The notes under the pieces are model-generated. The model searched no databases. It was given only the letters and a program-made list of their open reading frames with translations, and was not told the origin of the DNA. Source: a virus (taxonomy: Duplodnaviria > Caudoviricetes). From it: a stretch of DNA of 64,000 nucleotides. The stretch spans positions 11,485-75,484 of the IMG/VR virus record IMGVR_UViG_3300005719_000002. One strand, given 5' to 3'. Position numbers and translations under genes: made by a program. Of this stretch, positions 3,327 through 19,295 are shown one piece after another (position 1 is the stretch's first letter; every line of letters begins with the position of its first letter).

Positions 3327-5351
3327 ATGCCATCCCCAAACCCACCAACAAATCTGGTCTGCACCAACGGCGGCGCAAACGATATTGTTTTGGCATGGAC
3401 GGATAACTCGTCCGATGAAACAGGGTTCAGGATTGAGCGCAAGCTGGGTGTCAGTGGATCGTATTCGGAAATCGACACGGTAGGTGCAAACGTTACCGGC
3501 TACGTTGACACGTCTTCCAAGACAGCCAACCGTCCGTATATCTACCGCGTGCGCGCTTATAACGGTTCCGGCAATTCGGCCTACTCAAATGAAGACGACG
3601 CCACCACGCCCTATGCGGGTACGGTTCCCAACTACAAGACCGACACCGCGAACTACGTAGACGTTGAGAAGACCATCACCGATGCAACGAACGCGACCCC
3701 GATTGTCATCACCACCAGCACGACGCACGGCCTCTCCACAGGCGATCTGATTCGCATATCAAAGGTTCTGGGTAACGATGCGGCCAATGGGCTGTGGCGC
3801 GTTACGGTGCTGAGCACCACCACGTTTAGTCTCGACAACAGTGTCGGCACTGGCGCGTTCAGTTCCAGTCCGGCAGCGCGGGTATTTGCCAACTTCCCTG
3901 TGCCTCTACCGTTGGCTGGCGGGAAGTTCTACGACGAAATGTTCGGTACACAGGTAATGCGGTTTACGGACGAGTCGGACGGGGATTATTTCGGCACGGC
4001 TTACTCAGTATGGCCGACATTCAACTGCGACAACACGCGGGTCTATTTGCAATCAGGGGGTGGTTGGGCATTAGGTGAATTCAACCCAACGACCTTCCGC
4101 CGCTCTGGAGCGCTTCACTCAATCCCGAATGCACCGTTTACCAACTATGCCCACTACGAGTCAGCCTTCTGGAGTTTTACCGATCCCAATAAATTGTTCA
4201 TTCTGGTTGATGCCAAAATCTACTACTACAGCCCCTTAACCGACACCTACACGCTCGTCAAGGACTTGCAGAGCTACTTCGGAGCGGGGTGGTTTTTCAA
4301 TCAGCTTTATGTGAGCAGCAATGACAATCGTTTTGGGTTCAACACATGGAACGGGTCAGGTAATCAGGGCTTTGCGGTGTATGAACTGTCCACCGACACT
4401 CTGAAACTCGACGTGCGCAACACCGATGTCAACGGCATCACGATGGACAAGTCCGGCCAGTATGTGTTGTTTGTTACCGACTCTCTTGGTTATTACACCC
4501 AGTACATCTACTCCGTGGACGCTGGAACCTTTGAGACTCTTATCTCAGACGTGAACACCGGACTGCCGGATTTTGGCATAGGGCACAACGATGCCGGTCA
4601 GAGCGTGATTGTGGGAGCGGATCAATGGAATGGTGGGTTTAGTTTCCGTAACATGGGTACGCCACACACGGTGAGCCACCCATTCACCTACGCCCCCTAC
4701 TGGTTTAATTTTCACCTCTCAATGCGTGCTGATAACGATGAGTGGGTGCTGGTCGGCACCTACGGCGATACTGGCGTGTCCGCCGCACCGCCGAAGTATT
4801 ATCAGGAGCTTTTCCAGACAAACAACACAAACGGTTCCCTCAGGCGGCTGGTTCACGGTAATTCCAACTATCAAGCCAACGTGTTCCTTTGTCCCACCTG
4901 TCCGGTAACTGTGACGGGTGCGACCAACGCAACGCCTATAGTTATTGCTACCTCCGGCCCGCATCGGATGCTGACAGGGATGCGCCCGCAGATTTCCGGC
5001 ATTGGCGGGAACACAGCAGCGAATGGCACGTGGACAGCGACGGTCATTGATGCGACACACTTTAGTTTAGACGGCAGCACTGGCAACGGGGCTTACACAT
5101 CCGGTGGGCAGGTTTACGCGGAGATGTACTGGGACACGCCGCGTGCGAACATGAGCCGTGATGGTAAGTTTATCGCGTGGACTTCCAACTGGAACGGAGT
5201 TCCCGGTGGTGGGCGCAGGGACTTGTTCATCGCGCAGGTTGATCCGGTCAACCCGTCCGCGTCCCCTAGCCCATCGGCGTCGCTTAGTCCTTCAGCGTCC
5301 GCGTCACCGTCGGCAGGCAGTAGTTTGAAGTTGATTGCTTTGTGTGGCTAG
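3327..5351 (+). CDS. Tail fibre / receptor-binding protein: FN3, two FCCH-like beta modules, beta-propeller, SPSAS tail
   Basis: FN3 signature (PNPPTNL...LAWTDNSSDETGFRIER...YIYRVRAYN); two ITxATNATPIVI modules; SRDGKFIAWTSNW blade. Confidence 0.75.
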   Translation: MPSPNPPTNLVCTNGGANDIVLAWTDNSSDETGFRIERKLGVSGSYSEIDTVGANVTGYVDTSSKTANRPYIYRVRAYNGSGNSAYSNEDDATTPYAGTVPNYKTDTANYVDVEKTITDATNATPIVITTSTTHGLSTGDLIRISKVLGNDAANGLWRVTVLSTTTFSLDNSVGTGAFSSSPAARVFANFPVPLPLAGGKFYDEMFGTQVMRFTDESDGDYFGTAYSVWPTFNCDNTRVYLQSGGGWALGEFNPTTFRRSGALHSIPNAPFTNYAHYESAFWSFTDPNKLFILVDAKIYYYSPLTDTYTLVKDLQSYFGAGWFFNQLYVSSNDNRFGFNTWNGSGNQGFAVYELSTDTLKLDVRNTDVNGITMDKSGQYVLFVTDSLGYYTQYIYSVDAGTFETLISDVNTGLPDFGIGHNDAGQSVIVGADQWNGGFSFRNMGTPHTVSHPFTYAPYWFNFHLSMRADNDEWVLVGTYGDTGVSAAPPKYYQELFQTNNTNGSLRRLVHGNSNYQANVFLCPTCPVTVTGATNATPIVIATSGPHRMLTGMRPQISGIGGNTAANGTWTATVIDATHFSLDGSTGNGAYTSGGQVYAEMYWDTPRANMSRDGKFIAWTSNWNGVPGGGRRDLFIAQVDPVNPSASPSPSASLSPSASASPSAGSSLKLIALCG

Positions 5352-5353
5352 AA

Positions 5354-5596
5354 ATGCAACGCAAACCGCATGGAAGGTCGATAACGCTTATCGCAACCCT
5401 AACACCACCGAAGGTTGCCAGTCTAACCTTTACGCTGACCCGTCCAGATCGCAGCAAGTCGTCTCAGATGGCATCCACGGACGGGGCGGGGAAGGCCAGT
5501 GTGAGTTTTCAGTTGCGTCCTAAAGACCCGACGGCCACATATCAATGCAGCGTGGCAGGGGCAGGAGCAAGCGATTCGACTTCGATAATTTGCTGA
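5354..5596 (+). CDS. Small Ig-like structural protein
   Basis: ATG 3 nt after the upstream stop; STDGAGKASVSF...ATYQCSV Ig-like pattern. Confidence 0.55.
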   Translation: MQRKPHGRSITLIATLTPPKVASLTFTLTRPDRSKSSQMASTDGAGKASVSFQLRPKDPTATYQCSVAGAGASDSTSIIC

Positions 5597-5625
5597 CGCC
5601 GTAGCGTACTGAGATAGAGATGGTT

Positions 5626-5662
5626 AGCCGAGCCGGGACATACGAACTCGGCTCGGTTTTTT
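5626..5662 (+). terminator. Intrinsic terminator
   Basis: AGCCGAGCCGGG / CTCGGCTCGGTT stem (11-12 bp) followed by TTTTTT. Confidence 0.8.
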
Positions 5663-5668
5663 CATAAA

Positions 5669-8299
5669 TTGGCAACTAAACTTTACTTAGAATCGACCGC
5701 GTTCTCGCCCATCACGCCGACGCCTAACGCCGGTTGGACGGACACGACGCAGTTTGCCCGCTTCGCGGCTGGCACAACCAAGCTGAGTTCCACGATGACG
5801 ACGCGCAGTTGCACGTCAGCCATCTCCACTCAGGCCGACATTATTCTCTGCCAGTTTATTTCACACCCGCTGGATGCAGGCCAGACGATTACCGGCGGGC
5901 AAAACATTTCGATTGTAATGCGCGAGGCGGAGACTGCCGCCACTAACAACCTCTTTTTCACTTGGGCAGTCTACATTTTCAACGGCTCAACACTTCAGAA
6001 AACCCTCATTGCCAAGCGTCAGGATGGCACTGAGCAGACCTCCGCTACCTTAACCACCCGCAGCGCCACGGTTGCGAGTGTGGCGGGTAACTACACCACC
6101 GTTGCGGGGGATCGAATTGTTATTGAGGTTGGATTGAACGGCGACCCCGGCGGCACGAGCAACCACAATGGATCGGTTAGTCACGGATCGGATTCAGGTT
6201 CGGATTTGGCTATTTCAGATGGCGTTACGACCGCTAATAATCCCAACCTGAACCTCACCGACACGCTGACGTTTAATACGATTTCCCCTTCAGCTTCGCT
6301 CAGTCCAAGTGCATCGCTGAGTCCAAGTGCATCCTTGTCCCCCTCGGCAAGTCTCAGCCCCAGCGCCAGTGTTTCACCCTCACTCAGTCCATCAGCGAGT
6401 TTAAGCCCCTCTGCCAGTTCGTCACCTTCTCTGAGTCCATCAGCCAGCCTGTCACCGTCTGCGAGTCGTAGTCCCAGTGCCAGTATCTCGGCATCGGTCA
6501 GCCCCTCTGCGAGCTTGTCCCCATCCGCCAGCCTCAGCCCTTCGGCAAGCAGTTCGGCGTCGTTAAGTCCGTCAGCAAGTATCAGTCCAAGTTCCAGCGC
6601 AAGTCCCAGCGTGTCGGCAACGCCACCGATATTTATCGAAGGGCAGAATGTCGATCCATTCTTCATTGAACACTTTCTGTTCTATGAGACACAGCCCTTG
6701 CTGGGAATTCCGGGGTTGTCGCCAAGTGCTTCAGTCAGTCCATCAGCAAGTATTTCGGCTTCAATTAGTCCCAGCGCCAGTCTCAGCCCCTCGGCGTCTT
6801 TGAGTCCGAGCGCGAGTGTGTCAGCTTCAGTCTCCCCCAGTGCGAGCATTAGCCCATCAGCTTCAGCCTCACCAAGTCTCTCACCATCCGCGTCGCTGAG
6901 TCCTTCTGCGAGTGAGTCGCCTTCGATTTCTCCGTCCGCGTCTTTAAGCCCCAGCGCTTCCGTGTCGGCCAGCGTGTCGCCCAGTCCGTCGCTGTCGCCT
7001 TCAGCGTCGCTCTCGCCCTCTGCCAGTGTCTCCGCGTCGTTATCGCCTTCGGCGAGTCTAAGTCCGAGTGCTTCACAATCTGCGAGCCTATCCCCTAGCG
7101 CGTCATTGTCACCTTCGGCGTCCCTTTCACCGTCCGCGAGTGCATCAGCCTCAGTGTCCCCGTCGGCGAGTCTCAGTCCCAGCAGCAGCGCATCGCCGTC
7201 TTTGTCGCCATCTGCGTCTCTGTCACCAAGCGCATCGCCGTCACCATCGGCCAGTGTTAGCGCGAGCGTATCTCCCAGTGCTTCGTCCAGCGCCAGTTCG
7301 TCGCCGTCACTTTCTCCGAGTGCCAGCGCGTCACCATCGTCCAGCGCCAGTCCTAGTTCCGGTCTGACTCCGGCCATCTTCGTCTACGGCCAAAACGTCG
7401 ATCCGTTTTTCATTCAGCACTTCATTCCGCTGATTGTTAATTCGCTGTTCGTTGCTGAGCAGCCATCGCCATCCGCTTCGCTTAGCCCCAGTGCCAGTCA
7501 GTCACCCAGCGCCAGCGCCAGTCCCAGCCCTCCGGCTGCGCCGCCTGTGTTCGTCTATGGTCAGAATGTTGATCCGTTCTTCATCCAGAAGTTCATCCCG
7601 CTGATTGTCAACTCTCTATTCGCGATTGAAATCACGGCATTCTCACCGAGCGGTAGCCAGAGTCCATCCGCTTCCGCGTCAGCATCGCTGTCTCCGTCGC
7701 GGTCGTTGAGTCCCAGTGCATCGCTTAGTGCCAGCCTGTCTCCCAGTGCGAGTTTGTCACCTTCAGCCTCGCTCAGCCCAAGTGCCAGCGCTTCGCCGTC
7801 TCGTTCGCCGTCAGCTTCTCTAAGTCCCAGTGCAAGTGTCTCCGCATCGCGCTCACCCAGTGCCTCACGGAGCGCATCTCTTAGCCCTTCAGCATCCATC
7901 AGCCCATCAGCCAGCGGGTCGGTCAGTCCTTCCCCATCGGTCAGCCCGTCAGCATCAATCAGCGCTTCGGCGTCAATCTCGCCATCGCCAAGTGCCAGTG
8001 CGTCTCGTTCCCCTTCGGCATCTTTAAGCCCCTCTGCCTCCATTAGTCCCTCACTCAGCCCCAGTGCTTCTGCTTCAGCGTCTGCCAGCCCTTCGGGGTC
8101 ACTGTCGGCGTCGCTCTCACCAAGTACATCCATCTCTCCGTCCGCGTCAGCCAGCCGCAGTATCTCGCCAACCTTGCCGCCGCCATTGTGCGTGACCTTT
8201 GAATTCACGCTCACAACAAGCCAAGTGGTGTTCTCAGGAAAGACTTCTACAACAGAGTTCGATCTACACACTTCTGAAATTGACTTTGACCAATTGTAA
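5669..8299 (+). CDS. Virion protein: folded N-domain, ~630-aa SPSAS region interrupted by three GQNVDPFF motifs, short C-domain
   Basis: TTG start giving MATKLYL; repeat region 6284-8170. Confidence 0.75.
6284..8170 (+). repeat. Low-complexity SPSAS coding repeat
   Basis: Translation; synonymous codons are scrambled. Confidence 0.95.
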
Positions 8300-9249
8300 T
8301 GGCCGTATCCCCCTCAGCCAGTATCAGCCGCAGCCCCAGCCCGTCGGCATCGCGGTCGCCGTCAGCTTCACGCAGCCCTTCAGCCAGTAGATCGCCGTCT
8401 GCATCTGTTTCGGCGTCTCGCAGTCCGTCAGCCAGCCGTTCACCCAGTGCTTCAGTATCAGCAAGCATTTCGCCGTCGGGGAGCGCCAGCGGGTCACTCT
8501 CTCCGTCAGGGTCGGCCAGCACGAGCACTTCACCTTCAGCATCTATTAGCGCATCACAAAGCCCTTCGGGTTCAATATCAGCGTCGCTATCTCCATCCGG
8601 CTCGGTGAGCACGAGCGCGTCACCCTCGGCCTCGGTGAGTGCGTCACCCAGCCCGTCAAGCTCAGTATCCGCGTCACCATCCAGTTCAGCGAGCGCAAGT
8701 ATCAGCGCTTCGTTATCACCAAGCACGTCCAGTAGCGGGAGCGCATCACCATCAGCCTCGGTGTCCCTATCAGCCAGTGCTTCGTCATCTCAAAGCCTAT
8801 CTCCCAGCGCAAGCGCATCGGAAAGTCCGAGTCCCTCGGCTTCTGTAAGCCCATCGAGTAGCATGTCTCGCTCGCTCAGCCCTTCCAGTTCCGTCTCAGA
8901 GTCACCCAGCGCCAGTGAAAGCCCATCCGTATCCGCCAGCCCGTCAGCAGCACCAGTTTCCCCGTCGGTGTCGGTCTCACCTTCCGCCAGTGTTTCCGTT
9001 TCTCCATCTCCAAGTCCGTCGCCCTCTGAAAGCGGCAGCGTCAGTCCAAGTAACAGCCTTAGTAACTCACCGTCCCCGTCAAACGGGCCGTGGTCGCCTT
9101 CTTCGTCAATCAGTCCATCCAGTTCAAACAGTCCCAGCGTAAGCCCAAGCAGTTCAGTCAGTCCTTCACACGTACATCAGGATTCAGGTTCGTCCTCTAT
9201 AAGCCCGTCAAGTTCATGCAGCCCTTCGCCTAGTTCTTCTCCTGGGTGA
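8299..9249 (+). CDS. Stand-alone Ser/Pro-rich mucin-like disordered protein (316 aa)
   Basis: TAATG stop/start overlap with the upstream gene; the whole protein is low complexity. Confidence 0.7.
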
Positions 9250-9256
9250 AACTCTC

Positions 9257-9293
9257 TTGACAGCATCTACGCAGCAAGCGTATATATTGCTAC
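9257..9293 (+). promoter_or_regulatory. Sigma70-like promoter with overlapping inverted repeat
   Basis: TTGACA(9257-9262)-18 nt-TATATA(9281-9286); GCAGCAA / TTGCTAC inverted repeat (9271-9293). Confidence 0.65.
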
Positions 9294-9296
9294 TCA

Positions 9297-9440
9297 GTGA
9301 GTAAAAAACCCGTCACCATTCAAACCTTTAGATGCCAATGCGAACGCTGCGGGTATCGGTGGGTGGCAAAGGTCAGAGAACCCAAGCGTTGCCCTAACTG
9401 TCATAATCCCAACTGGAACAGGCGGAAGAAGACGAGATGA
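9297..9440 (+). CDS. Zn-ribbon mini-protein (47 aa), absent from the ORF track
   Basis: GTG start; MSKKPVTIQTFRCQCERCGYRWVAKVREPKRCPNCHNPNWNRRKKTR; ATGA overlap with the next gene. Confidence 0.75.
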   Translation: MSKKPVTIQTFRCQCERCGYRWVAKVREPKRCPNCHNPNWNRRKKTR

Positions 9441-10408
9441 TCAAAGGTCGTGTATCAGTACTCATCCCCAGCCGCAAGGAACGCTGGCTGAACCAGACCC
9501 TAGCCGATGTGTTCGGTAAAGCGGCTGGTGATGTCGAAGCGGTCGTGTGCCACGACGGAATTTGGCCGGACGAGTTACCGCCTGAAAACGCAAAGCTCAT
9601 CCAGTTTCATCCCGGCAGAAACGTCGGCATGAGAGCGGGAATCAACATGGCTGCGCGCATTGCTCAGGGTGAATACCTAATGAAACTTGACGGTCACTGT
9701 CAGTTGGGCGAAGGGTATGATGCGATTCTCAAGGCCGATTGTGCGCCGAATTGGGTGATGATTCCACGGCGGTATTCCATTGAGGTCGGCACACCTGAAG
9801 AACCGAAATGGGAACTGCGAACCGATAAGGTGGTTGATTATCACTACCTTTCCTACCCGTTTCTCCGCAAGAACGATATCGCCTGTGGGCTGCATGGGAA
9901 CATCTGGCATGAACGGCGCAAGAAGCGTCAGGATATTTTAGTGGATCGTGAAATGTCATCACAGGGGTCGTGCTACTTCGGCCACCGAGACTTCATGGAG
10001 AAGGCCATCTTTCCGCTGGATGACGAATCTTTCGGCACGTTTGCGAGCGAGATGCAGGAAGTTGGTTATCGGGCTTGTTCTAACGGCGGGCAGTTGATGG
10101 TCAATAAGAACACCTATTACGGCCATGTTCATAAGGGCAAAGCGTGGGGTACGGGGTATAAGTTCAACACGAAAGAATGGGAGAACTGGCAACGGCAGAA
10201 TAAGAAGGGTCACGACCACGCAATCATTCAGCTTCTCTCGAATCGACCGCTGGCCGAGAAGTTAATCAACGAGTTCTGGCCTGTACCCGAATGGCCGGAG
10301 AAAAACGGTGGGTGCAACTGGGGTAAAGTCTATGCAGACTTTGCCGAATGGAAAGCAGAAACCTACGGCAAGGAACCGCCGATGAGTTGGTTGGAAAAGG
10401 GGGCATGA
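9437..10408 (+). CDS. GT-A glycosyltransferase (GT2 clan), ppGalNAc-T-like
   Basis: SVLIPSRKE, GMRAGINMAARIAQGEYLMKLDGHC (DxH), GSCYF, GGQLMVNKNTYYGH. Confidence 0.85.
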   Translation: MIKGRVSVLIPSRKERWLNQTLADVFGKAAGDVEAVVCHDGIWPDELPPENAKLIQFHPGRNVGMRAGINMAARIAQGEYLMKLDGHCQLGEGYDAILKADCAPNWVMIPRRYSIEVGTPEEPKWELRTDKVVDYHYLSYPFLRKNDIACGLHGNIWHERRKKRQDILVDREMSSQGSCYFGHRDFMEKAIFPLDDESFGTFASEMQEVGYRACSNGGQLMVNKNTYYGHVHKGKAWGTGYKFNTKEWENWQRQNKKGHDHAIIQLLSNRPLAEKLINEFWPVPEWPEKNGGCNWGKVYADFAEWKAETYGKEPPMSWLEKGA

Positions 10409-10503
10409 TGATTATCTTCTGGATTTCCCTTGTAGTGGTGGCAATGGCAGTACTTATTTGGCTAGGCAGCAAAACAGCAAAGGAGCAAAATCGATGGCGT
10501 TAG
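10405..10503 (+). CDS. Small membrane peptide (32 aa)
   Basis: ATGA overlap; hydrophobic MMIIFWISLVVVAMAVLIWLG. Confidence 0.5.
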   Translation: MMIIFWISLVVVAMAVLIWLGSKTAKEQNRWR

Positions 10504-10766
10504 ACGAAGTAATCGACACAGAAGCAGTGGTGAAAAGTTTCTCACCGCGTCCGACAAAGCCGGTGACAATGGACTTTCCTGACGCGATGCGGGAGGTGAT
10601 CGCGGGGAAGAAGATCGCTAAGTTGGAGTGGGCGGAGAAGGGCGAGCCGGAGTGCTATGCATTGCTCAACGCCGGAATGCTGCAAATCTTTCGTGGGGCA
10701 AGTTTCCATGCGTGGAATGTCTCTGATGGGGATTTAGCGGGTGAGGATTACATTGTGGTCAAATGA
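10494..10766 (+). CDS. tad2: DUF2829 / Thoeris anti-defence Tad2-like protein
   Basis: MDFPDAMREVIAGKKIAKLEW...HAWNVSDGDLAGEDYIVV matches the DUF2829 pattern; SD AAGGAG supports the start at 10494. Confidence 0.7.
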   Translation: MALDEVIDTEAVVKSFSPRPTKPVTMDFPDAMREVIAGKKIAKLEWAEKGEPECYALLNAGMLQIFRGASFHAWNVSDGDLAGEDYIVVK

Positions 10767-11404
10767 ACCGCACCCTCCAATTCATCGCTGACAAGTTCGG
10801 CGTAGACCTGAACGCTCGGTGCCCTATCGCGCTGCCAATCAGCCGTCATGGGCTAGCCAAGTTGTTTGCTGACTTAGGATTCAAGCACATCGTGGAGATT
10901 GGTGTCGAGAAAGGACTGTACACAAAAGCCCTTGCCAAATTCAACCCGCAAGCAACCATCTACGCTATCGACGCTTGGCACCCGATCAAAGGCTATCGTG
11001 ACCACGTAAACCGAGACAAGCTCCAGAGGTTTTACGAGATCAGCAAGGAACGTCTCGCACCGTTTCCGAACGTGAAAATCATCCGGCAGCTTTCACTGGA
11101 TGCGGTGAGGGATTTTAACGACAAGTCACTGGATGCTGTTTATATCGATGCCGATCACTGTTTTCAGTCAGTTACAAATGACATCTGTGAGTGGGGTAAA
11201 AAAGTTAAAGCAGGTGGCATTGTTGCAGGTCACGACTTTGCCCACTTAAACAAAGGTAATGCCCTGATGCACGTTAAGTATGTCGTTGAGGGCTATACGC
11301 GCTGTTACGACATTTACCCGTGGTTTCTGACCAATACCGACGAGGAAGAACCGGAAGCGGACAGTCTTAAGACTAATCGAAGTTTCTTGTGGGTTAAGCA
11401 GTGA
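10763..11404 (+). CDS. Class I SAM-dependent methyltransferase (Methyltransf_24-like)
   Basis: IVEIGVEKG, AIDAW, LDAVYIDADH, GGIVAGHDF. Confidence 0.85.
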   Translation: MNRTLQFIADKFGVDLNARCPIALPISRHGLAKLFADLGFKHIVEIGVEKGLYTKALAKFNPQATIYAIDAWHPIKGYRDHVNRDKLQRFYEISKERLAPFPNVKIIRQLSLDAVRDFNDKSLDAVYIDADHCFQSVTNDICEWGKKVKAGGIVAGHDFAHLNKGNALMHVKYVVEGYTRCYDIYPWFLTNTDEEEPEADSLKTNRSFLWVKQ

Positions 11405-12036
11405 TTGTTGGAGTTCTTTACGTTACCTCGAACCGAGAGCGCCCTGAATTCGAGGAGAAGATAAAGGCCAGCCTGTTGACCGTTATTGGAGATCGACCCT
11501 TGGTGAGCGTATCACAACAACCGATAAATTTTGGTCGGAACATCTGCGTGGGTGACATTGGACACTCCTACTACAGCGCCTTCCGGCAAATGGTTGTTGG
11601 CGCAGAATCCATGACGGAGGACTATGTAGCCATTGCCGAGTCCGACCAGCTCTACCCACCCGACTATTTCACTTTTGAGCCAGCCGGAGAAGACCTGTAC
11701 CTGCATGACAGTGTGTATGTAATCAAATCCTTCAAACCCGACCAGTATCAGCAAAAGCGCTGGGGTGACTGGATTTCCGTGGTGAAGCGAGAGTATCTGA
11801 TTGCCTGCGCCAAAAGCTACCTTAGCAAAAAGAAGACGCGCGTGTCACTGTTTGGGCTTCATGGGTTGAAAGACGTGAAGCATTGGAAACACGGATTACC
11901 CGTGGTGAGCTTCAAGACGCGGCAGAATGTCAGTCTTAACACCGAGACATTAGTGGACACGGGCGAGGTAGAAGCGGTCGCAGAACTGCCTTACTGGGGT
12001 AAGGCTCGCGATCTGTTTAGGAAGTACGTGAAATGA
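11401..12036 (+). CDS. GT-A-like glycosyltransferase domain, paralog 1
   Basis: VSVSQQP...GRNICVG...DYVAIAESDQLYPPDYF; shared with 14125 and the C-half of 15104. Confidence 0.65.
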   Translation: MIVGVLYVTSNRERPEFEEKIKASLLTVIGDRPLVSVSQQPINFGRNICVGDIGHSYYSAFRQMVVGAESMTEDYVAIAESDQLYPPDYFTFEPAGEDLYLHDSVYVIKSFKPDQYQQKRWGDWISVVKREYLIACAKSYLSKKKTRVSLFGLHGLKDVKHWKHGLPVVSFKTRQNVSLNTETLVDTGEVEAVAELPYWGKARDLFRKYVK

Positions 12037-12707
12037 AGGTGTGCGTAATCAGCGCCTCGCTTGGTAACTACGATGTCGAACATCCGTGGGCAGAGCAAAT
12101 TGTTCCTGATGGCGTCGAAGTAGAAATCCACCGGCTCAACGATTCTAATTTCCCGCCACGCCATAAAGCCATGACGCCTGCGTTACAGTGCGGGATACCG
12201 AAATGGCACGGTTACGAAATGTTTCCTGGTTTCGACTGGTATCTCTGGATAGACGCGAGTTGCGCGCTCACCAGAGGCAACGAAGTGCATCTGTGGCTGT
12301 GTGAAGCCGATGCGTTCAACTTGGCAGGTTACTACGACATCGCACTGTTCAAACACCCTGAGCGGAAGACTATTCAGCAAGAGTATGAATTTATCAAGGA
12401 AAAGATGGCGACGGGCAACAAGTATCTCTGTTCGCGATATGAAGGTGAATGGCTAGACGAGCAATACGAGTACGTGGCTGATATCGCTTATTATCCAGCG
12501 TTCTATGCGTCTACTGCTTTCATCTACAACCCAACGCCGCTAATTCGCAACGCGTTCAAAGAGGTTGCGTGGCAAAAATACCGCTTCATGCTGCACGATC
12601 AACTTGCCCTTGCTTATGCACTTCGAGAACACGGGCATAGTATCAAGGTAATCAATCAGGATTATCAAAAGTCGGGGTTGATGGAGTTTGTGAGGAGTAA
12701 GAAGTAA
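12033..12707 (+). CDS. DUF616/MUCI70-TOD1-like glycosyltransferase
   Basis: SASLGNYD, YLWIDAS, FKHPERKTIQQE, DQLAL motifs. Confidence 0.65.
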   Translation: MKVCVISASLGNYDVEHPWAEQIVPDGVEVEIHRLNDSNFPPRHKAMTPALQCGIPKWHGYEMFPGFDWYLWIDASCALTRGNEVHLWLCEADAFNLAGYYDIALFKHPERKTIQQEYEFIKEKMATGNKYLCSRYEGEWLDEQYEYVADIAYYPAFYASTAFIYNPTPLIRNAFKEVAWQKYRFMLHDQLALAYALREHGHSIKVINQDYQKSGLMEFVRSKK

Positions 12708-12710
12708 CTC

Positions 12711-13913
12711 ATGCCCAATACCATCATCTTAGGAGCGGGCTTCAGTGGCCTTGCTACCGCGATCACGTCAGGTGGGACGGTCTATGAGGCAACGGATTCA
12801 CCGGGCGGTCTGGGTGCGTCCTACGAAATCAACGGTTTCCGCTTTGAGCGCGGCGGGGGGCACTGGTTGTTCGGCGGCGACCCGATGGTAACGGCGTTTA
12901 TCCAAGGACTCTGCGACATTAAGCGGTACGAGCGCAAGTCGTCCATTTATTTTCCCGATGAGGACAAGTTCTACCCCTACCCAATTCAGTCCACCCCTGA
13001 GTTCGCGAGCGTCATCAGTCAGGAGACAGGCGGTGAGTACGGTCAACCCATCGTGACCATAAAAGACGACTTGCGGCATCGGTTCGGCACGACCATGTGT
13101 GAGAAGTTTTTCTTTCCATTCAACGACCTCTATACCGCAGGACTCTACGACAAGGTTGCTCCGCAGGACGCTTACAAAAGTCCGCCGATTGGCAACAAGG
13201 GCTACAACGAGACGTTTATCTATCCGGTGCAGGGGTTGGGGCATTTGGCACGTCGCATGGCCGCACGGTGTGAGGTGAGGTTCAACAAGCGAGCAAAGTG
13301 GATTGATACCAGAGAGAAGATGGTTCATTTCGAGGATGATACCTGTCAAGGGTATGGCAAGTTAGTTTCCACGTTGCCGCTGAACCGCATGATGGTGATG
13401 ACAGGATTGCAACCAGACAATGACGCCAGCGATCCTGCTGTATCGGTTGCTGTGTATAACATCGCTGCTAAAAGAGGTAAAAACTGTCCTAGTGACCAAT
13501 GGGTTTACACGCCGAATAGTGATGCGGGTTTTCATCGAGTCGGGTTCTATAGCAACGTGGATAAGATACTTGCTCCGTTTGGCAAGCAAGACACCCATGT
13601 AAGTATGTACGTTGAATCTGCGCACAAATACGATCCGCACGCCAGCAATGGCTTAGTAAGTGAGTGGTCAAATGAAAGCGCCGTAATTTGGACGCTTCAG
13701 GAGTGGGGCTGGATAGAAGATACCGAGGTAGTAGATCGTACTGACGTAGAAATCGCCTACACCTACTGCCGACCGGAAAGCACATGGCGAGAGGATGCGA
13801 TTGCGTTGCTCAAGCAGCACGACATCACCTGTGTTGGGCGATTTGCCGAGTGGCGGTTTTGCGGAATCGTTGAGTCTATGCGGAGAGGGTTTGAAGCGGG
13901 GGTAAATTTATGA
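12711..13913 (+). CDS. FAD-dependent oxidoreductase, UDP-galactopyranose mutase/HemY-like
   Basis: IILGAGFSGL Rossmann motif, E...PGG, GGGHW, RVGFYSN, GRFAEW. Confidence 0.7.
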   Translation: MPNTIILGAGFSGLATAITSGGTVYEATDSPGGLGASYEINGFRFERGGGHWLFGGDPMVTAFIQGLCDIKRYERKSSIYFPDEDKFYPYPIQSTPEFASVISQETGGEYGQPIVTIKDDLRHRFGTTMCEKFFFPFNDLYTAGLYDKVAPQDAYKSPPIGNKGYNETFIYPVQGLGHLARRMAARCEVRFNKRAKWIDTREKMVHFEDDTCQGYGKLVSTLPLNRMMVMTGLQPDNDASDPAVSVAVYNIAAKRGKNCPSDQWVYTPNSDAGFHRVGFYSNVDKILAPFGKQDTHVSMYVESAHKYDPHASNGLVSEWSNESAVIWTLQEWGWIEDTEVVDRTDVEIAYTYCRPESTWREDAIALLKQHDITCVGRFAEWRFCGIVESMRRGFEAGVNL

Positions 13914-14134
13914 TTCCTATAATAGTACACATCAACGCTGGGCATGAATTTTGCGATGACGAAGAAAGGCGATGTCACTTTTACAAGTCTAGCGACATAT
14001 CGATGGCTTCTCAGTGTGATGCCCATTGCAAATTGTTCGCTGTGGACTTGCGAGAGGTGTTCAATGAGAGGGGTCAAATCCTGCACGCCAAACGCCACGA
14101 TTTGTGTGTCATCGCTGAAAAGTTATGTCCCTAG
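13910..14134 (+). CDS. Small hypothetical protein
   Basis: ATGA overlap with the upstream gene and overlap with the downstream start. Confidence 0.5.
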   Translation: MIPIIVHINAGHEFCDDEERRCHFYKSSDISMASQCDAHCKLFAVDLREVFNERGQILHAKRHDLCVIAEKLCP

Positions 14135-14820
14135 CTATCCTATTCTACAGTGCTAACCAAAAGCCCGAACCTTTCGCCTCCAAGGTGCGCGCATCTCTAC
14201 TCGACACAATAGGCGACCTGCCGCTCGTCTCCGTCACGCAAGGCGAATTAGACTTCGGCCAAAACATCAACGTCGGACAAATCGGTGCGTCCACCTACAA
14301 CTGCTACAAGCAAATTCTTATTGGGGCGCAAGCGGCCACCACGCGGTTCATCGCCTGTGCCGAGGACGACGTTCTCAGCCCTGTCGAACATTACCAGTTT
14401 CGCCCTCCCCGCGACGACACTTTCTACTACGATAAAAACCGCTGGTGGGTGGAGCTAAACGACCGGAAGCCTCGTTACCGCTGGCGCAACCGCACGGTAA
14501 TGTCCACCTGTGTCTGCAACCGTGAATTGTTCATCGAATGGGCAGAGAGGCTGTTTAAGAAGTTCCCCAAGGAACCGACTAGGGAGGGGATGACGGGCTG
14601 GGCGGAGCCGGGAAGGTACGAAACCTACCTCAAACTTCCGCAGGTAAAGATTAGCTTTTTCAGCAGTCAATACCCAATGCTGACGTTTAACACCAAGCCG
14701 TCTCTGGGTGGTGTTAGAAGGCCGCAGTCAACTGACACGACCTGTAACTACTTAGAACCTTGGGGATTCGCCAGTGACGTTTGGGAGAAATATATAGCCA
14801 GTGGGGCTGAAAGCGGCTAG
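14125..14820 (+). CDS. GT-A-like glycosyltransferase domain, paralog 2
   Basis: LVSVTQG...GQNINVG...FIACAEDDVLSPVEHYQFRPPRDD. Confidence 0.65.
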   Translation: MSLAILFYSANQKPEPFASKVRASLLDTIGDLPLVSVTQGELDFGQNINVGQIGASTYNCYKQILIGAQAATTRFIACAEDDVLSPVEHYQFRPPRDDTFYYDKNRWWVELNDRKPRYRWRNRTVMSTCVCNRELFIEWAERLFKKFPKEPTREGMTGWAEPGRYETYLKLPQVKISFFSSQYPMLTFNTKPSLGGVRRPQSTDTTCNYLEPWGFASDVWEKYIASGAESG

Positions 14821-14863
14821 AATGTCCTGACAACTGAATAGGCCACATCCCCAGAGGATCAAC

Positions 14864-14909
14864 CACCGTTTAGTTTCGAGTTATCGCAACTTGAAATTGG
14901 CGGTGTTTT
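14864..14909 (+). terminator. Long hairpin with U-tract, terminator-like
   Basis: CACCG/CGGTG outer stem, TTTCGAGTT/AACTTGAAA inner stem, then TTTT. Confidence 0.5.
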
Positions 14910-14925
14910 CATTTAGGAGGGGCTT

Positions 14926-15093
14926 ATGTTCATAACGCAATGTGTAGGCCGTCGCAAGCTGGAATGGCGGTTACAAGCCGACGGGAGTTACAGGGTAGAC
15001 ATTAAGCTGAAGGATACCCGATTAGCCACTCTGATCATCGACAAGGCCGAAGCGAGCAAACTGCGCGCTCGAATGGTGAAGCATTCGAAGTAG
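14926..15093 (+). CDS. Small basic protein (55 aa), absent from the ORF track
   Basis: SD AGGAGG; MFITQCVGRRKLEWRLQADG...KHSK. Confidence 0.55.
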   Translation: MFITQCVGRRKLEWRLQADGSYRVDIKLKDTRLATLIIDKAEASKLRARMVKHSK

Positions 15094-15103
15094 GAGGTAA
15101 CTT

Positions 15104-16810
15104 ATTCCTTACGACCTCTCGGTTTTGATCCCCGCTCGTAACGAGGAATTCCTCGCCCGTACCGTTGAAGGCGTTCTTGCTGCGCGGGAAGCAAAAACCC
15201 AAGTTTGCGTGATCGCGGACGGCGCTTGGCCTGACCCTCCGCTCCCTGTTCATCCTGACGTAACAATCATTCATCACTCGAAGTCTATTGGGCAACGGGC
15301 AGCTTGCAATGAAGGTGCGCGGCTGTCTGAAGCCAAGTACATAATGAAGCTGGATGCGCACTGCATCATGGATCAGGGATTTGACCGGAAGCTGATTGAG
15401 GACGCCCAGCCCGACTGGACGGTCATTCCCAGCCAGTACAACCTCTACGCCTTCGACCGTCTCTGCAAAGACTGTGGACACGAAGCCTACCAAGGCCCAA
15501 CGGTATGCGAGAAGTGCGGCTCGAAGAACGTGGAGAAAGTGATCGTGTGGCAACCGCGCGATGGGCGGGTAATTAACGGCAAGAACATGGGCAAGCGGCT
15601 TACCGAAGCGTGGGCGTTTGATCGCGAGTTGCACTTTCAGTATCACGGGGAAATAGCCGCAAGACAGCAAGGCGATCTAATTGAAACCATGTCGTTACTG
15701 GGAGCCTGCTGGTTTCTGGAACGAGAACGGTATTGGGAGTTGGGCGGCAGCGACGAGGAGCATGGCTCATGGGGACAGCAAGGCACGGAGATAGCCTGCA
15801 AGTCATGGCTGTCGGGTGGGAAGGTAATCGTTAACCGCAAGACATGGTTTGCCCATATGTTCCGCACTCAAGGCGGCGACTTCGGGTTTCCATACCCGAA
15901 CACTTCGGTTCACAAAGCGCGGGAACACTCCAAGTGGCTGTGGAAGGGCAACAACTGGCCGCTGGCTAAGTATCCCCTATCGTGGCTGGTGGAGAGGTTC
16001 ATGCCGCTGGGGTCGTGGTGGAGCCAGGAAGACCTTGACCAGCTTAAAGCGGTAGAGAAGGGTAAAGCGGTAGAGAAGGGCAAAGCGGTGGATGTCCGGC
16101 CTCCAACCAAGGGAATCGTCTACTACTCCCATAACCAGCTTGATCCGGTCGTCGCCCAGACCGCCAGAGACGTGCTCAAGCGCGCGGTTAACGGGCACAA
16201 GATTGTTTCAGTTACACTGGAGCCGGTAGACCTTGGGCTGAATGTCGTTCTCCGCGATAAGCAGAAGGGTTATCTAACCTATCTTGAGCAGATTCTCAAG
16301 GGACTACAGACATCGACAGCGGACTCCTGCTGGCTGGTTGAGCATGATTGCCTCTACCCACCTGAGCATTTTGCTTTCACCCCGCCACGAGATGATCGCT
16401 ATTACTACAACACCAATGTCGTGAAGGTGCGCTGTTCGGATGGTCACGTGCTGAAGTATTCCGGCTGCTTGCAGGTGTCGGGGATGTGTGCCAGCCGCCA
16501 ACTGCTCATCCAGCACTACGAGAAGCGCATTGCGCGGTTTCACGCAGACGGTGACAAGTATGATCGTCATATCGGGTACGAGCCGGGAATGCGCCCACCG
16601 CCACGAGGGATTGACGATTACGGATATGAGACGTGGACTTCCACAAAGCCGATTGTTGATTTGCGTGTCGAGGGAACAATGTCGAAGTCGAGGTGGACGA
16701 TTGACGAGTTTCGCAACAAGCCGAAAGAATGGTGGGAGGGTGATTATGTTGAGGGGTGGGGGCCGACCAAAGGCCGCGTATCGGAATTCCTTCAGGACTT
16801 GAGAGCATGA
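15104..16810 (+). CDS. Two-domain glycosyltransferase: ppGalNAc-T-like GT2 domain (Zn-ribbon insertion) plus GT-A-like paralog 3
   Basis: DLSVLIPARNE, KLDAHC, WELGGSDEEHGSWGQQGTE, GGKVIVNRKTWFAHMFR. Proposed start is the ATT 6 nt after GGAGG; the track start at 15125 truncates strand beta1. Confidence 0.85.
   Translation: MPYDLSVLIPARNEEFLARTVEGVLAAREAKTQVCVIADGAWPDPPLPVHPDVTIIHHSKSIGQRAACNEGARLSEAKYIMKLDAHCIMDQGFDRKLIEDAQPDWTVIPSQYNLYAFDRLCKDCGHEAYQGPTVCEKCGSKNVEKVIVWQPRDGRVINGKNMGKRLTEAWAFDRELHFQYHGEIAARQQGDLIETMSLLGACWFLERERYWELGGSDEEHGSWGQQGTEIACKSWLSGGKVIVNRKTWFAHMFRTQGGDFGFPYPNTSVHKAREHSKWLWKGNNWPLAKYPLSWLVERFMPLGSWWSQEDLDQLKAVEKGKAVEKGKAVDVRPPTKGIVYYSHNQLDPVVAQTARDVLKRAVNGHKIVSVTLEPVDLGLNVVLRDKQKGYLTYLEQILKGLQTSTADSCWLVEHDCLYPPEHFAFTPPRDDRYYYNTNVVKVRCSDGHVLKYSGCLQVSGMCASRQLLIQHYEKRIARFHADGDKYDRHIGYEPGMRPPPRGIDDYGYETWTSTKPIVDLRVEGTMSKSRWTIDEFRNKPKEWWEGDYVEGWGPTKGRVSEFLQDLRA
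16046..16089 (+). repeat. 18-nt tandem repeat (KAVEKG x2.4) at the GT domain junction
   Basis: AAAGCGGTAGAGAAGGG repeated. Confidence 0.9.
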
Positions 16811-17175
16811 ACGTCAACGAAAAAGCTGGTTGCACGATCAACGTGGTAATCAAGGATGAGAACAAGCAAGTGGTCATCCCTGATGCCTTTAACTACGCAT
16901 TGGCAGACAAGGACTCAGGAATAGTGCTCACTTCAGGTTCCAAGTCCCCGGCCAGTTCGGTAAATATCGCCATCACCCCCAATCAGAACCGTATTCTCGA
17001 TCAGGGCAAGCCAAGTGAAACCAGAGTCCTGACAGTGGTAGCGCCGTACGATGGAACCAACCAGGCAACCGGCGAGTACCAGTACAAAGTTGTTAATCTC
17101 AAAGGGGTAGATGCGAATACGTCCACTTCGCCGTCGGCTTCGGTGTCTCCTTCGGCAAGTCCGTCGGCTGGGTAG
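16807..17175 (+). CDS. Small beta-rich structural protein with C-terminal SPSAS tail
   Basis: ATGA overlap at 16807; ends [17 protein letters not shown]. Confidence 0.65.
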   Translation: MNVNEKAGCTINVVIKDENKQVVIPDAFNYALADKDSGIVLTSGSKSPASSVNIAITPNQNRILDQGKPSETRVLTVVAPYDGTNQATGEYQYKVVNLKGVDANTSTSPSASVSPSASPSAG

Positions 17176-17215
17176 CAATGCAATTACATCCTCAGACTGA
17201 AGGCGGACGATAACT

Positions 17216-18010
17216 ATGCGCCAAAGTGATGAAGACAGAGATAAGCGTCAAATTCCGCATGATGACGTTGCTTATGGCGATATAGTACCGCGTCCCGATC
17301 CGACAACGCTCACAACTCGCCAGCTTGAGCGCGAGATTGCCGCACTCTCTGAAATCTTTGAAGCCAAACTCAGGGCGCTTACTGAGCGGGTTAATACTTT
17401 TGAAACCGGCAGTAAGGAAGCCTTAGTTGCCGCCGCCCAAAACATTCAGACCGGATTAGATAAAGCCGAAAAGAGCATCGTTGTTTCGATTGACAAGGTT
17501 CAGAGCGAACAGCGTAATGCCCTCACCGATGCCGAGAAGCGGGTCAATGAGAAGTTTGAAGGGTTAATAAAATCTATAGATGAAAAGTTCTCACAGCATC
17601 GAGTGGTTGATGACGAAAAATTCCGCAGTATTGAGGTTCAGTTTGTAGAAAGGGACAGGCGCACCGAACAATTGTCGTTGGCGGACAAGACGGCCATCGC
17701 CGCAGCACTTCAAGCTCAGAAAGAAGCTGCGGGCGCAACGAACGAAAGTAATGCCGCAGCTATTTCTAAAAGCGAATCGGCATTCACAAAACAGATCGAT
17801 CAAATCTATACACTTGTGGCATCAACCACCAAGAGTACTGATGACAAAATCAACGATCTCAAATCGCGCTTAGATCGCGGCGAAGGGAAAACGGTTGGAA
17901 CACAGGAAACGAAAACCGAGCAACGGGATAACGGTAAATACCTGATTGCTGTTCTAGGACTACTACTCGCTATCCTTGCGTTTATTGTGGGCAAAGGTGG
18001 GCTTCACTAA
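17216..18010 (+). CDS. Coiled-coil protein with C-terminal TM anchor
   Basis: Heptad-rich; YLIAVLGLLLAILAFIVG at the C-terminus. Confidence 0.7.
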   Translation: MRQSDEDRDKRQIPHDDVAYGDIVPRPDPTTLTTRQLEREIAALSEIFEAKLRALTERVNTFETGSKEALVAAAQNIQTGLDKAEKSIVVSIDKVQSEQRNALTDAEKRVNEKFEGLIKSIDEKFSQHRVVDDEKFRSIEVQFVERDRRTEQLSLADKTAIAAALQAQKEAAGATNESNAAAISKSESAFTKQIDQIYTLVASTTKSTDDKINDLKSRLDRGEGKTVGTQETKTEQRDNGKYLIAVLGLLLAILAFIVGKGGLH

Positions 18011-18021
18011 GAGGGTGGCTG

Positions 18022-18225
18022 ATGGACAATCTTGACTGGAAACTCTGCTGGAAGTGCGGTGAGCGCAAGCCGTCAAGGGAGTTCCTGTCACCTTTAGATG
18101 GCGAGTGCCTCAACTGCCATATGAAAAAGACAGACAAAGCGGACACTTTCGATGTAGTATGTGGACGGGCAGCAAAATTGAGGGGCACGGAGTTTTTAAC
18201 ACATGAGAACCTTTCACGAAGTTGA
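18022..18225 (+). CDS. Small Cys-containing protein
   Basis: SD GAGGG; CWKC and CLNC motifs. Confidence 0.5.
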   Translation: MDNLDWKLCWKCGERKPSREFLSPLDGECLNCHMKKTDKADTFDVVCGRAAKLRGTEFLTHENLSRS

Positions 18226-18448
18226 GCGCGGCGGCAATCTTGATTTCTTGCTCCGTGGGTTTAATGGAGCCGTCAACAAGCTGGCAGACGCCATTGGCGG
18301 CGGATTAAAAGCAGTCGCCTTGGCGCTCTCGACGCCTCAAGACAATTCTGCTCAGGTGCAGGCAGAAATTGACAAGCAAGTGGCACTACTTAACGCCGGA
18401 ACCGCCGTGGTTCAGGACGCAATCAACCAGCAAACAAAGGAGAGTTAA
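18203..18448 (+). CDS. Small helical hypothetical protein
   Basis: Co-directional; tight packing with the next gene. Confidence 0.55.
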   Translation: MRTFHEVERGGNLDFLLRGFNGAVNKLADAIGGGLKAVALALSTPQDNSAQVQAEIDKQVALLNAGTAVVQDAINQQTKES

Positions 18449-18449
18449 A

Positions 18450-18680
18450 ATGGCAGTAGACCTAACAGGACTTCGCGCGTCGGTATCGAACGCAACCACA
18501 GTGGACGCTTCCGGTGCGGCGCTTATTCGCGGCATCTCGCAGATGATTAAGGACGCGATTGCCGCAGACGACTTACAGGACTCGGCAGCTATCAATGAAG
18601 TGGTCACGCTTCTGGATGGCGGGACGACCGATTTGGCAGCGGCGATTGCTGAGCATACGCCAGCAGCGCCACCGGCGTAA
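18450..18680 (+). CDS. Small Ala-rich helical protein
   Basis: SD AAGGAG; MAVDLTGLRASVSNATTVDASGAALIRG. Confidence 0.65.
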   Translation: MAVDLTGLRASVSNATTVDASGAALIRGISQMIKDAIAADDLQDSAAINEVVTLLDGGTTDLAAAIAEHTPAAPPA

Positions 18681-18860
18681 CCGAACCTTCGCAAACACAG
18701 AACCCGACTGTAACACTGTGCAGGAGTATTAAACTGCAAAATGTGATTCATGGCGACCGCTAACGTACTTCATGAACGAAACTGGGCAGCAACGGAGAAC
18801 GGGAGAAGTACAGCAACTCCGTTGCAATCCCAGTTGCAACACGGAACATGGAGAGCGTTC

Positions 18861-19295
18861 ATGACCAAACCAACGACCACACCACGTTGGATGCAGCTTG
18901 TTACTCATGGTGCGCTCATTGTTACGATTTTGGTCGGCGTCGTTTCTTATGGGCGGTCGGCGGGGCGGACAGAAGTTGCTCTGGCGAACTACAACAAGGT
19001 TCCGGGGATTCAGGCAAACGTGGACTCCCTCGCCACGCAACTGAACAAGATCGAAGGGTTGATTAGCACGCAGAATGAGAAAACCAATCAAACCCTGGAC
19101 AGCCAGAACCGGCGCATCGACGCTACTCAGCAACAGATTGCCGCGTTAACCCAGCAACTTAACGCCCTTAACAATTCCTTCGGTTCAGTATGGGCGCTCG
19201 CTCAGTCGGACAGTAACAAGATGTCCAAGCTGGAAGGTATGCTCACCGCAATGCAACTTCAGCAACAGCAGCAACAGCGCAAGGAGAAAAACTAA
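18861..19295 (+). CDS. N-terminally membrane-anchored coiled-coil protein (i-spanin-like topology)
   Basis: SD GGAGAG; TM ALIVTILVGVVSY, then a Gln/Asn coiled coil. Confidence 0.6.
   Translation: MTKPTTTPRWMQLVTHGALIVTILVGVVSYGRSAGRTEVALANYNKVPGIQANVDSLATQLNKIEGLISTQNEKTNQTLDSQNRRIDATQQQIAALTQQLNALNNSFGSVWALAQSDSNKMSKLEGMLTAMQLQQQQQQRKEKN

Follow-up and report, generated by a model that had tools for sequence, protein, structure and literature searches.

GT27-like glycosyltransferases encoded beside serine-tract virion-module proteins point to a probable mucin-like O-glycosylation in an uncultivated phage

Introduction

Can a bacteriophage decorate its own virion proteins with mucin-like glycans in the cytoplasm of its host? 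The question is raised by a locus of an uncultivated tailed phage (Caudoviricetes; IMG/VR virus record IMGVR_UViG_3300005719_000002, 75,484 bp), in which two glycosyltransferase genes carrying DxH motifs follow a virion module whose products bear long tracts of alternating serines. Mucin-type O-glycosylation by DxH enzymes of the GT-A fold is regarded as eukaryotic and Golgi-based, and, to our knowledge, glycosylation of phage particles is established experimentally only for a few mycobacteriophages, with unrelated enzymes. Based on homology, fold, conserved catalytic residues, gene order and co-occurrence, we propose that this phage probably performs a cytoplasmic, mucin-like O-glycosylation of its own virion-module proteins, and that the N-terminal domain of the second enzyme is the best candidate for the initiating transferase.

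The window, the whole stretch of 64,000 nucleotides analyzed here, corresponds to bases 11485-75484 of the record, which carries direct terminal repeats (measured at 70 bp) and is rated 100% complete. It encodes the large terminase at 54991-56952 and, in its middle part, ParB-like, replication-initiation and Cas4-type exonuclease proteins. The virion module runs across the record ends into the first 9 kb of the window, with the glycosyltransferase genes directly behind it. Between 5669 and 16810 every gene is co-directional, with 4-nt overlaps or short gaps. Enzyme 1 (P0001) is encoded at 9437-10408 and enzyme 2 (P0002) by the gene ending at 16810; P0002 residues are numbered from the TTG at 15125. 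Unless marked as record positions, coordinates are those of the window, and the tract genes and cassette features located below by window positions lie on the + strand. A promoter and terminator scan of positions 5000-19000 gave sites no more frequent than in shuffled sequence, so that it says nothing about operon structure.

Two enzymes related in fold to polypeptide GalNAc-transferases

Domain searches assigned both proteins to a broad class. The Glycos_transf_2 model (PF00535) scored 27.8 and 44.6 bits (cut-off 23.3), in the N-terminal halves only, and was matched by all 59 and 47 aligned relatives of the two enzymes; on these 106 relatives, Pfam returned generic GT2 models only. PHROGs gave no match for either enzyme or for most of their neighbors, and NCBIfam only sub-threshold noise.

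Comparison with solved structures was more specific. The best Protein Data Bank (PDB) matches of the single sequences were polypeptide N-acetylgalactosamine (GalNAc) transferases, which constitute family GT27 (E values of 3e-3 and 7e-5). Family profiles strengthened these matches: the profile of P0001 (A2, 59 relatives) matched GalNAc-T9 over positions 5-259 (E 1.4e-11) and that of P0002 (A1, 47 relatives) matched GalNAc-T1 (E 5.4e-13). Both profiles cover the entire GT27 catalytic domain, while ordinary GT2 enzymes are covered only up to the DxD region. The two enzymes are also paralogous to each other, with 25% identity over 306 residues (E 3e-29).

AlphaFold models were obtained with a mean local confidence (pLDDT) of 93.9 and a predicted template modeling score (pTM) of 0.91 for P0001, and a pLDDT of 90.6 for P0002. 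When VIA-align was run exhaustively on 48,161 representative chains, P0001 reached Z 25.3 with GalNAc-T1 (8v9q) and 24.6 with GalNAc-T3 from Toxoplasma, the best other family scoring 18.2. Residues 1-305 of P0002 reached Z 24.9 with mouse GalNAc-T1 (8v9q; root-mean-square deviation of 2.3 Å over 253 residues) and 22.8 with Toxoplasma GalNAc-T3, against 17.3 for the best other family. GT27 thus stands about 7 Z-units above every other family for both enzymes. The top 46 or so Foldseek matches of P0002 in the PDB were all GT27 (E 5e-13), and its GT27-like catalytic domain corresponds to 15104-16054 (residues 1-310). The GT27 comparators were GalNAc-T1, T2, T4, T7, T10 and T12, Drosophila PGANT9 and Toxoplasma GalNAc-T3.

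Judged by their sequences and models, both proteins are predicted GT-A enzymes whose nearest solved relatives belong to GT27, a relationship that goes beyond chance. The original prediction had read this resemblance from motifs in both proteins, and it was confirmed by the profiles as well as by the fold. The structure search was led by GT27, and not by the polysaccharide or lipid GT2 enzymes named there as the opposite outcome.

We use the label GT27-like rather than GT27 because the enzymes fail on the lectin domain, the membrane anchor and the strict motif of this family; by sequence and model, inclusion in GT27 or a new sister family in CAZy are both possible. GT27 enzymes have a C-terminal lectin domain of the ricin type (beta-trefoil), and Pfam detected no Ricin_B_lectin domain in either enzyme or in the 106 aligned relatives. 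Both proteins begin at strand beta-1 of the Rossmann-like fold, and the type-II anchor and stem of GT27 are absent. Another DxH family of the GT-A fold akin to GT27, the GT60 polypeptide alpha-GlcNAc-transferases from Dictyostelium and trypanosomes, initiates O-glycans on Ser/Thr. Its model PF11397 was not matched at E 0.01 by either protein or by the 106 aligned relatives; a distant relationship is possible, and no solved GT60 enzyme was among the structure matches.

Catalytic and peptide-groove residues

Residue roles were assigned by alignment to full-length human GalNAc-T2, in which Asp224, His226 and His359 are the Mn ligands, Trp331 is the mobile catalytic Trp, and Phe280, Trp282 and Phe361 are key to the recognition of Pro-containing acceptor peptides (PMC4432651).

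In P0002, the DxH motif K-L-D-A-H-C is located at 15353-15361, with Asp77 (15353-15355) and His79 (15359-15361) aligned to Asp224 and His226. The third ligand, His244, aligned to His359, belongs to a stretch running from W216-G-Q-Q-G-T-E222 through H244-M-F246-R247 (15770-15865), which combines the counterpart of the catalytic Trp and a changed sugar-contact motif with the distal Mn ligand and a candidate groove Phe. Asp77, His79 and His244 are invariant in all 47 family members, as are W216, G217, G220, E222, F246 and R247; W216, E222, H244, F246 and R247 align to W331, E337, H359, F361 and R362 of GalNAc-T2. In the family, the GT27 motif WGGENLE is replaced by W-G-Q-[MQ]-G-[TV]-E, which keeps the Trp and the last Glu. 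Sequence alignment also suggests counterparts of the aromatic peptide groove. Phe171, in the candidate groove motif Phe171-x-Tyr173 (15635-15643; aligned to GalNAc-T1 and T2), corresponds to Phe280 and F246 to Phe361, both invariant (47/47), and Tyr173, equally invariant, pairs with Trp282 when T1 is the reference and with Tyr284 when it is T2.

P0001 (323 residues) is a soluble protein made up of one GT-A domain, with nothing beyond the catalytic domain. Its DxH motif, K-L-D-G-H-C at 9689-9697 (Asp85, 9689-9691; His87, 9695-9697), aligns with that of GT27, and its counterpart of the Gal/GalNAc-T motif extends from F202-x-x-E205-x-x-E208 to His230 (10040-10126). In the profile alignment with PGANT9, this stretch faces W-G-G-E-N-L-E and G-H-I-F-R. 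His230 (10124-10126), within Y-G-H-V-H-K, is the counterpart of the distal Mn ligand and, like D85 and H87, is invariant in all 59 members, F202, E205 and E208 being retained in 54, 58 and 57 of them. Both Glu are kept and the Trp becomes Phe, which makes a partial, not a strict, match to W-G-G-E-N-[LM]-E. P0001 has H-x-H-K where GT27 has H-x-F-R.

The two DxH motifs stand exactly where the original prediction had put them, the peptide that it quoted (ETMSLLGACWF to WFAHMFR) is present in P0002, and its Mn site of one Asp and two His is upheld by invariance in both families. Its reading of the remaining motifs was right in part: H-x-F-R occurs in P0002, with H-x-H-K in P0001, and a strict WGGENLE in neither.

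The start of P0002 deserves comment. An AGGAGG at 15092-15097 is followed by an in-frame TAA (15098-15100) and, 6 nt downstream of the AGGAGG, by an ATT at 15104. The only in-frame start candidates after the TAA are CTT and ATT; the TTG at 15125 is the first ATG, GTG or TTG, and a start there removes the conserved DLSV part of strand beta-1, while homologues start with M-DLSVLIPARNE. Given these homologue N-termini, the choice of in-frame codons and the spacing to AGGAGG, the true start is almost certainly ATT 15104. Just upstream, a 62-codon open reading frame (ORF) with its own ribosome-binding site occupies 14907-15093.

P0002 carries two additions. A zinc-ribbon-like CxxC...CxxC insertion (15464-15517; Cys114, 117, 128 and 131) gave weak matches to Zn-ribbon proteins and is absent from P0001; in alignment A1, conservation is complete for C114, C128 and C131 and at least 90% for C117. 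The C-terminal second domain (16100-16810) has a small GT-A/nucleotidyltransferase-like fold: model residues 325-561 match the folds of IspD and GlmU (Z 11-12), and an invariant E406-H407-D408 occupies the place of the GT-A DxD. The nearest ESM Atlas clusters of this domain are viral hypothetical proteins with no Pfam family.

Both families are large. The P0002 family has at least 4,599 matches at about 50% identity and is present on 457 IMG/VR contigs; for that of P0001, 446 clusters (50% identity) with E values of 1e-30 or below were found in 1.84 billion representatives. Relatives of P0001 were also found inside metagenomic polypeptides of up to 1,352 residues, with two to four matched stretches (P0195-P0201), and multi-domain fused versions of the GT27-like module thus occur in metagenomes. 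The structural neighbors of P0001 in BFVD (E ~1e-10) include several uncultured tailed-phage proteins labeled 'Glycosyltransferase, GlcNAc'; the other DxH polypeptide-glycosyltransferase family may also be carried by phages.

Candidate acceptor proteins

Five ORFs of the virion module contain tracts in which alternate residues are Ser or Thr, mostly as S-P-S-A-S-x hexamers, for about 1,390 tract residues in total. The 876-residue product of 5669-8299 consists of a 204-residue N-terminal globular domain followed by four (S-P-S-x-S-x)n tracts (584 residues), and that of 8299-9249 (316 residues) is nearly all tract, with 51% Ser. An 800-residue protein (record 10850-13252), whose C-terminal part is encoded at 2-1768, has an internal tract of 340 residues, the 265-residue product of 2526-3323 has one of 48 residues near its N-terminus, and a fifth ORF (record 1690-2253) ends in a C-terminal tract. 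All five are candidate acceptors of the enzymes.

The non-tract parts are mutually dissimilar, representing four unrelated scaffolds and one tract-only protein; the tract behaves like a portable tag. Tract serines use all six codons, about 40% being AGY, and the tract is therefore selected at the protein level. The possibility that the tracts are a DNA repeat read in the wrong frame was rejected on this codon usage and on the continuity of the frame with the globular domains. The hexamer sets Pro at +3, +1 and -1 of different serines, and these are the positions at which GT27 enzymes prefer Pro. For the protein encoded at 2-1768, NCBIfam returned weak matches to the ClfA, Sdr and 'ser_rich_anae_1' repeat models.

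Two further features of these proteins were observed. In the 876-residue protein, a hydrophobic motif, GQNVDPFFI-x-x-F, breaks the serine tracts in three copies (6616-7641); no family was recognized for it. Between the tract genes, a 674-residue protein (3327-5351) has fn3 and E1_FCCH-like domains and a weak match to the PHROG 'major tail protein'.

Association of the enzymes with serine tracts

A tract ORF was defined by at least 17 of 20 alternate positions being Ser/Thr, within 10 kb of an enzyme. Such ORFs, of the same SPSxS type, were found in 70 of 81 related viral loci versus 1 of 80 random IMG/VR loci, which substantiates the link between enzymes and SPSAS tracts on which the original prediction relied. 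Both paralogue types occur in 75 of the 81 viral loci. The closest related contig (L001; enzymes 47% and 64% identical) showed no tract ORF in the 21.7 kb examined, 17 kb of the contig lying outside.

The relationship was also followed from the side of the acceptor. Tracts were found in each of the seven close relatives of the N-terminal domain encoded at 5669-8299 (72-92% identity). Four of these loci extend beyond the tract and contain both enzymes; another, truncated at the 5' end, has only a fragment, scoring best as a P0002-type enzyme, and the remaining two stop inside the tract ORF. In the five distant relatives of this domain (34-41% identity), ordinary sequence replaces the tracts, and no enzyme lies within 10 kb. 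Non-serine repeats (e.g. of the GSFTLTG type) were noted in the place of the tract in distant relatives L272-L275 and L277.

Among GTDB matches, 38 of 59 loci have tract ORFs, all on contigs of metagenome-assembled genomes (MAGs). The 59 matches are spread over unrelated phyla, many of them Patescibacteria, a scatter that fits phage contigs binned into MAGs as well as it fits true prophages. On three Patescibacteria MAG contigs of 455-744 kb (L227, L243 and L256), an enzyme gene and an adjoining tract ORF were observed; there, the module is part of a chromosome or a prophage.

Other genes of the cassette

Between the two enzymes lie further genes of putative glycan metabolism. Two encode stand-alone paralogues of the C-terminal domain of P0002: one with an E-S-D motif at 11401-12036 (BLASTP E 1e-16; profile A1, positions 320-425, E 2.9e-19) and one with an E-D-D motif at 14125-14820 (profile A1, positions 319-534, E 7.4e-27). 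A methyltransferase (Methyltransf_24, Pfam E 1.1e-14), with 4-nt overlaps with its neighbors, is encoded at 10763-11404, and a homologue is found within 10 kb of an enzyme in 58 of the 81 related viral loci. The product of 12033-12707 is a putative glycosyltransferase of the DUF616/TOD1_MUCI70 type: Pfam gave no match for it, and PF04765 weakly matches the syntenic protein of L001, with which it has short motifs in common; homologues occur in 14 of the 81 viral loci. The gene at 12711-13913 encodes a flavoenzyme similar to UDP-galactopyranose mutase (UGM) of the eukaryotic type, with its best PDB matches to the enzymes of T. cruzi (E 5e-11) and Aspergillus and with NAD_binding_8 and Amino_oxidase matches (Pfam) at its N-terminus. 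Among the 81 related viral loci, this UGM-like flavoenzyme was found in L001 only.

A small ORF at 10458-10766 showed a sub-threshold Pfam match to a Thoeris anti-defence Tad2-like family (E 3.2e-4; 21.6 bits versus 25), and its homologues lie near an enzyme in 9 of the 81 viral loci.

Proposed pathway and competing explanations

In the pathway that we propose, both genes would encode soluble, cytoplasmic, Mn-dependent GT-A enzymes forming the core of a late-operon cassette devoted to the (S-P-S-x-S-x)n tracts of at least five virion-module proteins. The N-terminal domain of P0002 would bind the Pro-containing tract in a GT27-type aromatic groove and move the first sugar from a UDP-sugar onto Ser. 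P0001, with a diverged acceptor site, would fill neighboring serines or attach a second sugar. The chain could then be lengthened by the three E-x-D modules together with the DUF616-like protein, the UGM-like enzyme supplying UDP-galactofuranose and the methyltransferase capping the chain. The co-occurrence with tract ORFs supports a peptide acceptor, and the location of tract genes and cassette, which close the virion module, fits the proposal. We infer the acceptor, the donor, the order of the steps and a biological role as a hydrophilic glycan brush on fibers.

Several observations weigh against this proposal. In P0002, the positions of Glu334 and Asn335, which contact GalNAc in GalNAc-T2, are occupied by Q or M and by G, and nothing therefore supports GalNAc, or N-acetylhexosamines (HexNAc) generally, as donor; the HexNAc donor of the original prediction is unsupported, the WGQQGTE of P0002 having lost both positions. 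In the profile alignment of P0001, clear counterparts of the GT27 peptide groove were not found, and since H-x-H-K also replaces H-x-F-R, its sequence suggests that it may be a follow-up or elongating enzyme. The idea that both enzymes initiate on peptides thus holds as a candidate role for P0002, which keeps putative counterparts of Phe280, Trp282 and Phe361, and not for P0001. Regarding the association, the random control loci have a GC content of 60% versus 47% and half the total length, and ORFs were counted from stop to stop, not as called genes. Co-occurrence is partly inherited, as a single broad phage lineage may include many of the loci, and the contrast between tract-bearing and tract-less relatives amounts to about one evolutionary event; with common ancestry, the counts are not independent events. 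Finally, no homologue of either enzyme was detected by tblastn (E 1e-5) in 50,697 GenBank phage records, and none of the relatives is cultured.

The main rival explanation is that the GT27-like pair only elongates, the first sugar being put on Ser by an E-x-D module, the DUF616-like protein or a host enzyme. The features just described in P0001 and the loss of the Glu334/Asn335 positions in P0002 speak in its favor, as do the at least four further putative transferase modules of the cassette. Against it, the candidate counterparts of the residues with which GalNAc-T2 recognizes Pro-containing peptides (F171, Y173 and F246) are kept by every member of the P0002 family, and all related loci have, by construction, a P0002-type enzyme but differ in their accessory modules. 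We consider this explanation unlikely. The cassette might instead modify a host envelope polysaccharide or lipid-linked glycan, in the style of lysogenic conversion, or build a free glycan, the tracts being flexible linkers. Most phage GT2-type enzymes are annotated in this way, JGI names the homologues 'glycosyltransferase involved in cell wall biosynthesis', and UGM is typical of O-antigen and exopolysaccharide pathways. However, the proteins are no longer than the catalytic domain and start at strand beta-1, with no room for an N-terminal anchor, polysaccharide GT2 enzymes score 7 Z-units lower, and the enzymes are tightly linked with tract proteins in a cassette that belongs to a late virion operon, which makes a host-glycan target improbable.

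A different target altogether, such as phage DNA bases or a small molecule, seems very improbable: DNA glycosylation is known in phages, but the fold and motifs are of the GT27 type, unlike those of known DNA glucosyltransferases, genes of base hypermodification are absent beside the cassette, and tract co-occurrence would remain unexplained. Glycosylation of the phage's own tract proteins, initiated by P0002, is thus the reading that we favor. Its extension is put forward tentatively, at somewhat short of even chances: a cytoplasmic pathway of the mucin type would operate in hundreds of uncultivated phages, as well as in some ultra-small bacteria or their prophages, and set dense glycans on a portable tag that fits into any virion protein, with initiators that would be the closest prokaryotic or viral relatives of GT27.

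If the proposal is correct, mucin-like glycoprotein fibers are made by a large group of phages that is widespread in the environment. This would be a new kind of virion surface chemistry, and virion proteomics and host-range prediction would have to allow for heavy glycosylation. The short repeat would act as an acceptor tag that can be moved genetically, and as soluble relatives of GalNAc-transferases that bacteria can express, the enzymes could be useful in glyco-engineering. The family would also give an outgroup for the origin of GT27. In full-text literature searches, neither GT27-like phage enzymes nor phage proteins of the SPSAS type were found described.

Comparison with known systems

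The phage enzymes share with GT27 a GT-A catalytic domain (about 255-270 aligned residues, Z ~25 for both), the DxH and distal His of the Mn site and a counterpart of the mobile Trp; P0002 alone adds the H-x-F-R motif and candidate counterparts of the aromatic groove residues. Dense Ser/Pro tracts in disordered regions as likely acceptors are a further likeness. In contrast, the phage enzymes are just 18-22% identical to GT27, P0002 has a zinc-ribbon-like insertion and a second small GT-A-like domain, neither of which is found in P0001, and both are predicted to be cytoplasmic and are encoded by phages and MAG contigs.

In mycobacteriophages (Che8 and relatives), phage glycosyltransferases are reported to decorate the phage's own virion proteins (Freeman et al. 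2023, as cited in PMC11256854 and PMC12582341), and in Che8 glycans are reported on major capsid proteins (PMC11256854). The likeness is that phage-encoded enzymes act in the bacterial cytoplasm on the virion proteins of the phage itself and give them a glycan shield, which is here proposed from genes. The enzymes differ, not being detectably homologous by tblastn against GenBank phages, and the acceptors would be long dedicated alternating-Ser tracts in several proteins, as opposed to the major capsid proteins reported for Che8.

Serine-rich repeat proteins (SRRPs; GspB, Fap1) and the SD-repeat adhesins (Clf/Sdr) of Gram-positive bacteria have (Ser-x)n repeats on which the products of neighboring genes, GtfA/GtfB and SdgA/SdgB, respectively, build O-glycans in the cytoplasm. 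In these systems, the initiating enzymes are of the GT-B type (GT4), and export is by accessory Sec or sortase. Long Ser repeats beside dedicated enzymes make them a functional analogy to the phage locus, without membership: Pfam found no GT4/Glycos_transf_1 domain in any cassette ORF, whereas the SRRP and SD systems have a GT-B initiator, and the repeat products here are phage virion-module proteins. By ancestry, the closest known system is GT27; by function, the closest are mycobacteriophage virion glycosylation and the SRRP and SD-repeat glycoproteins.

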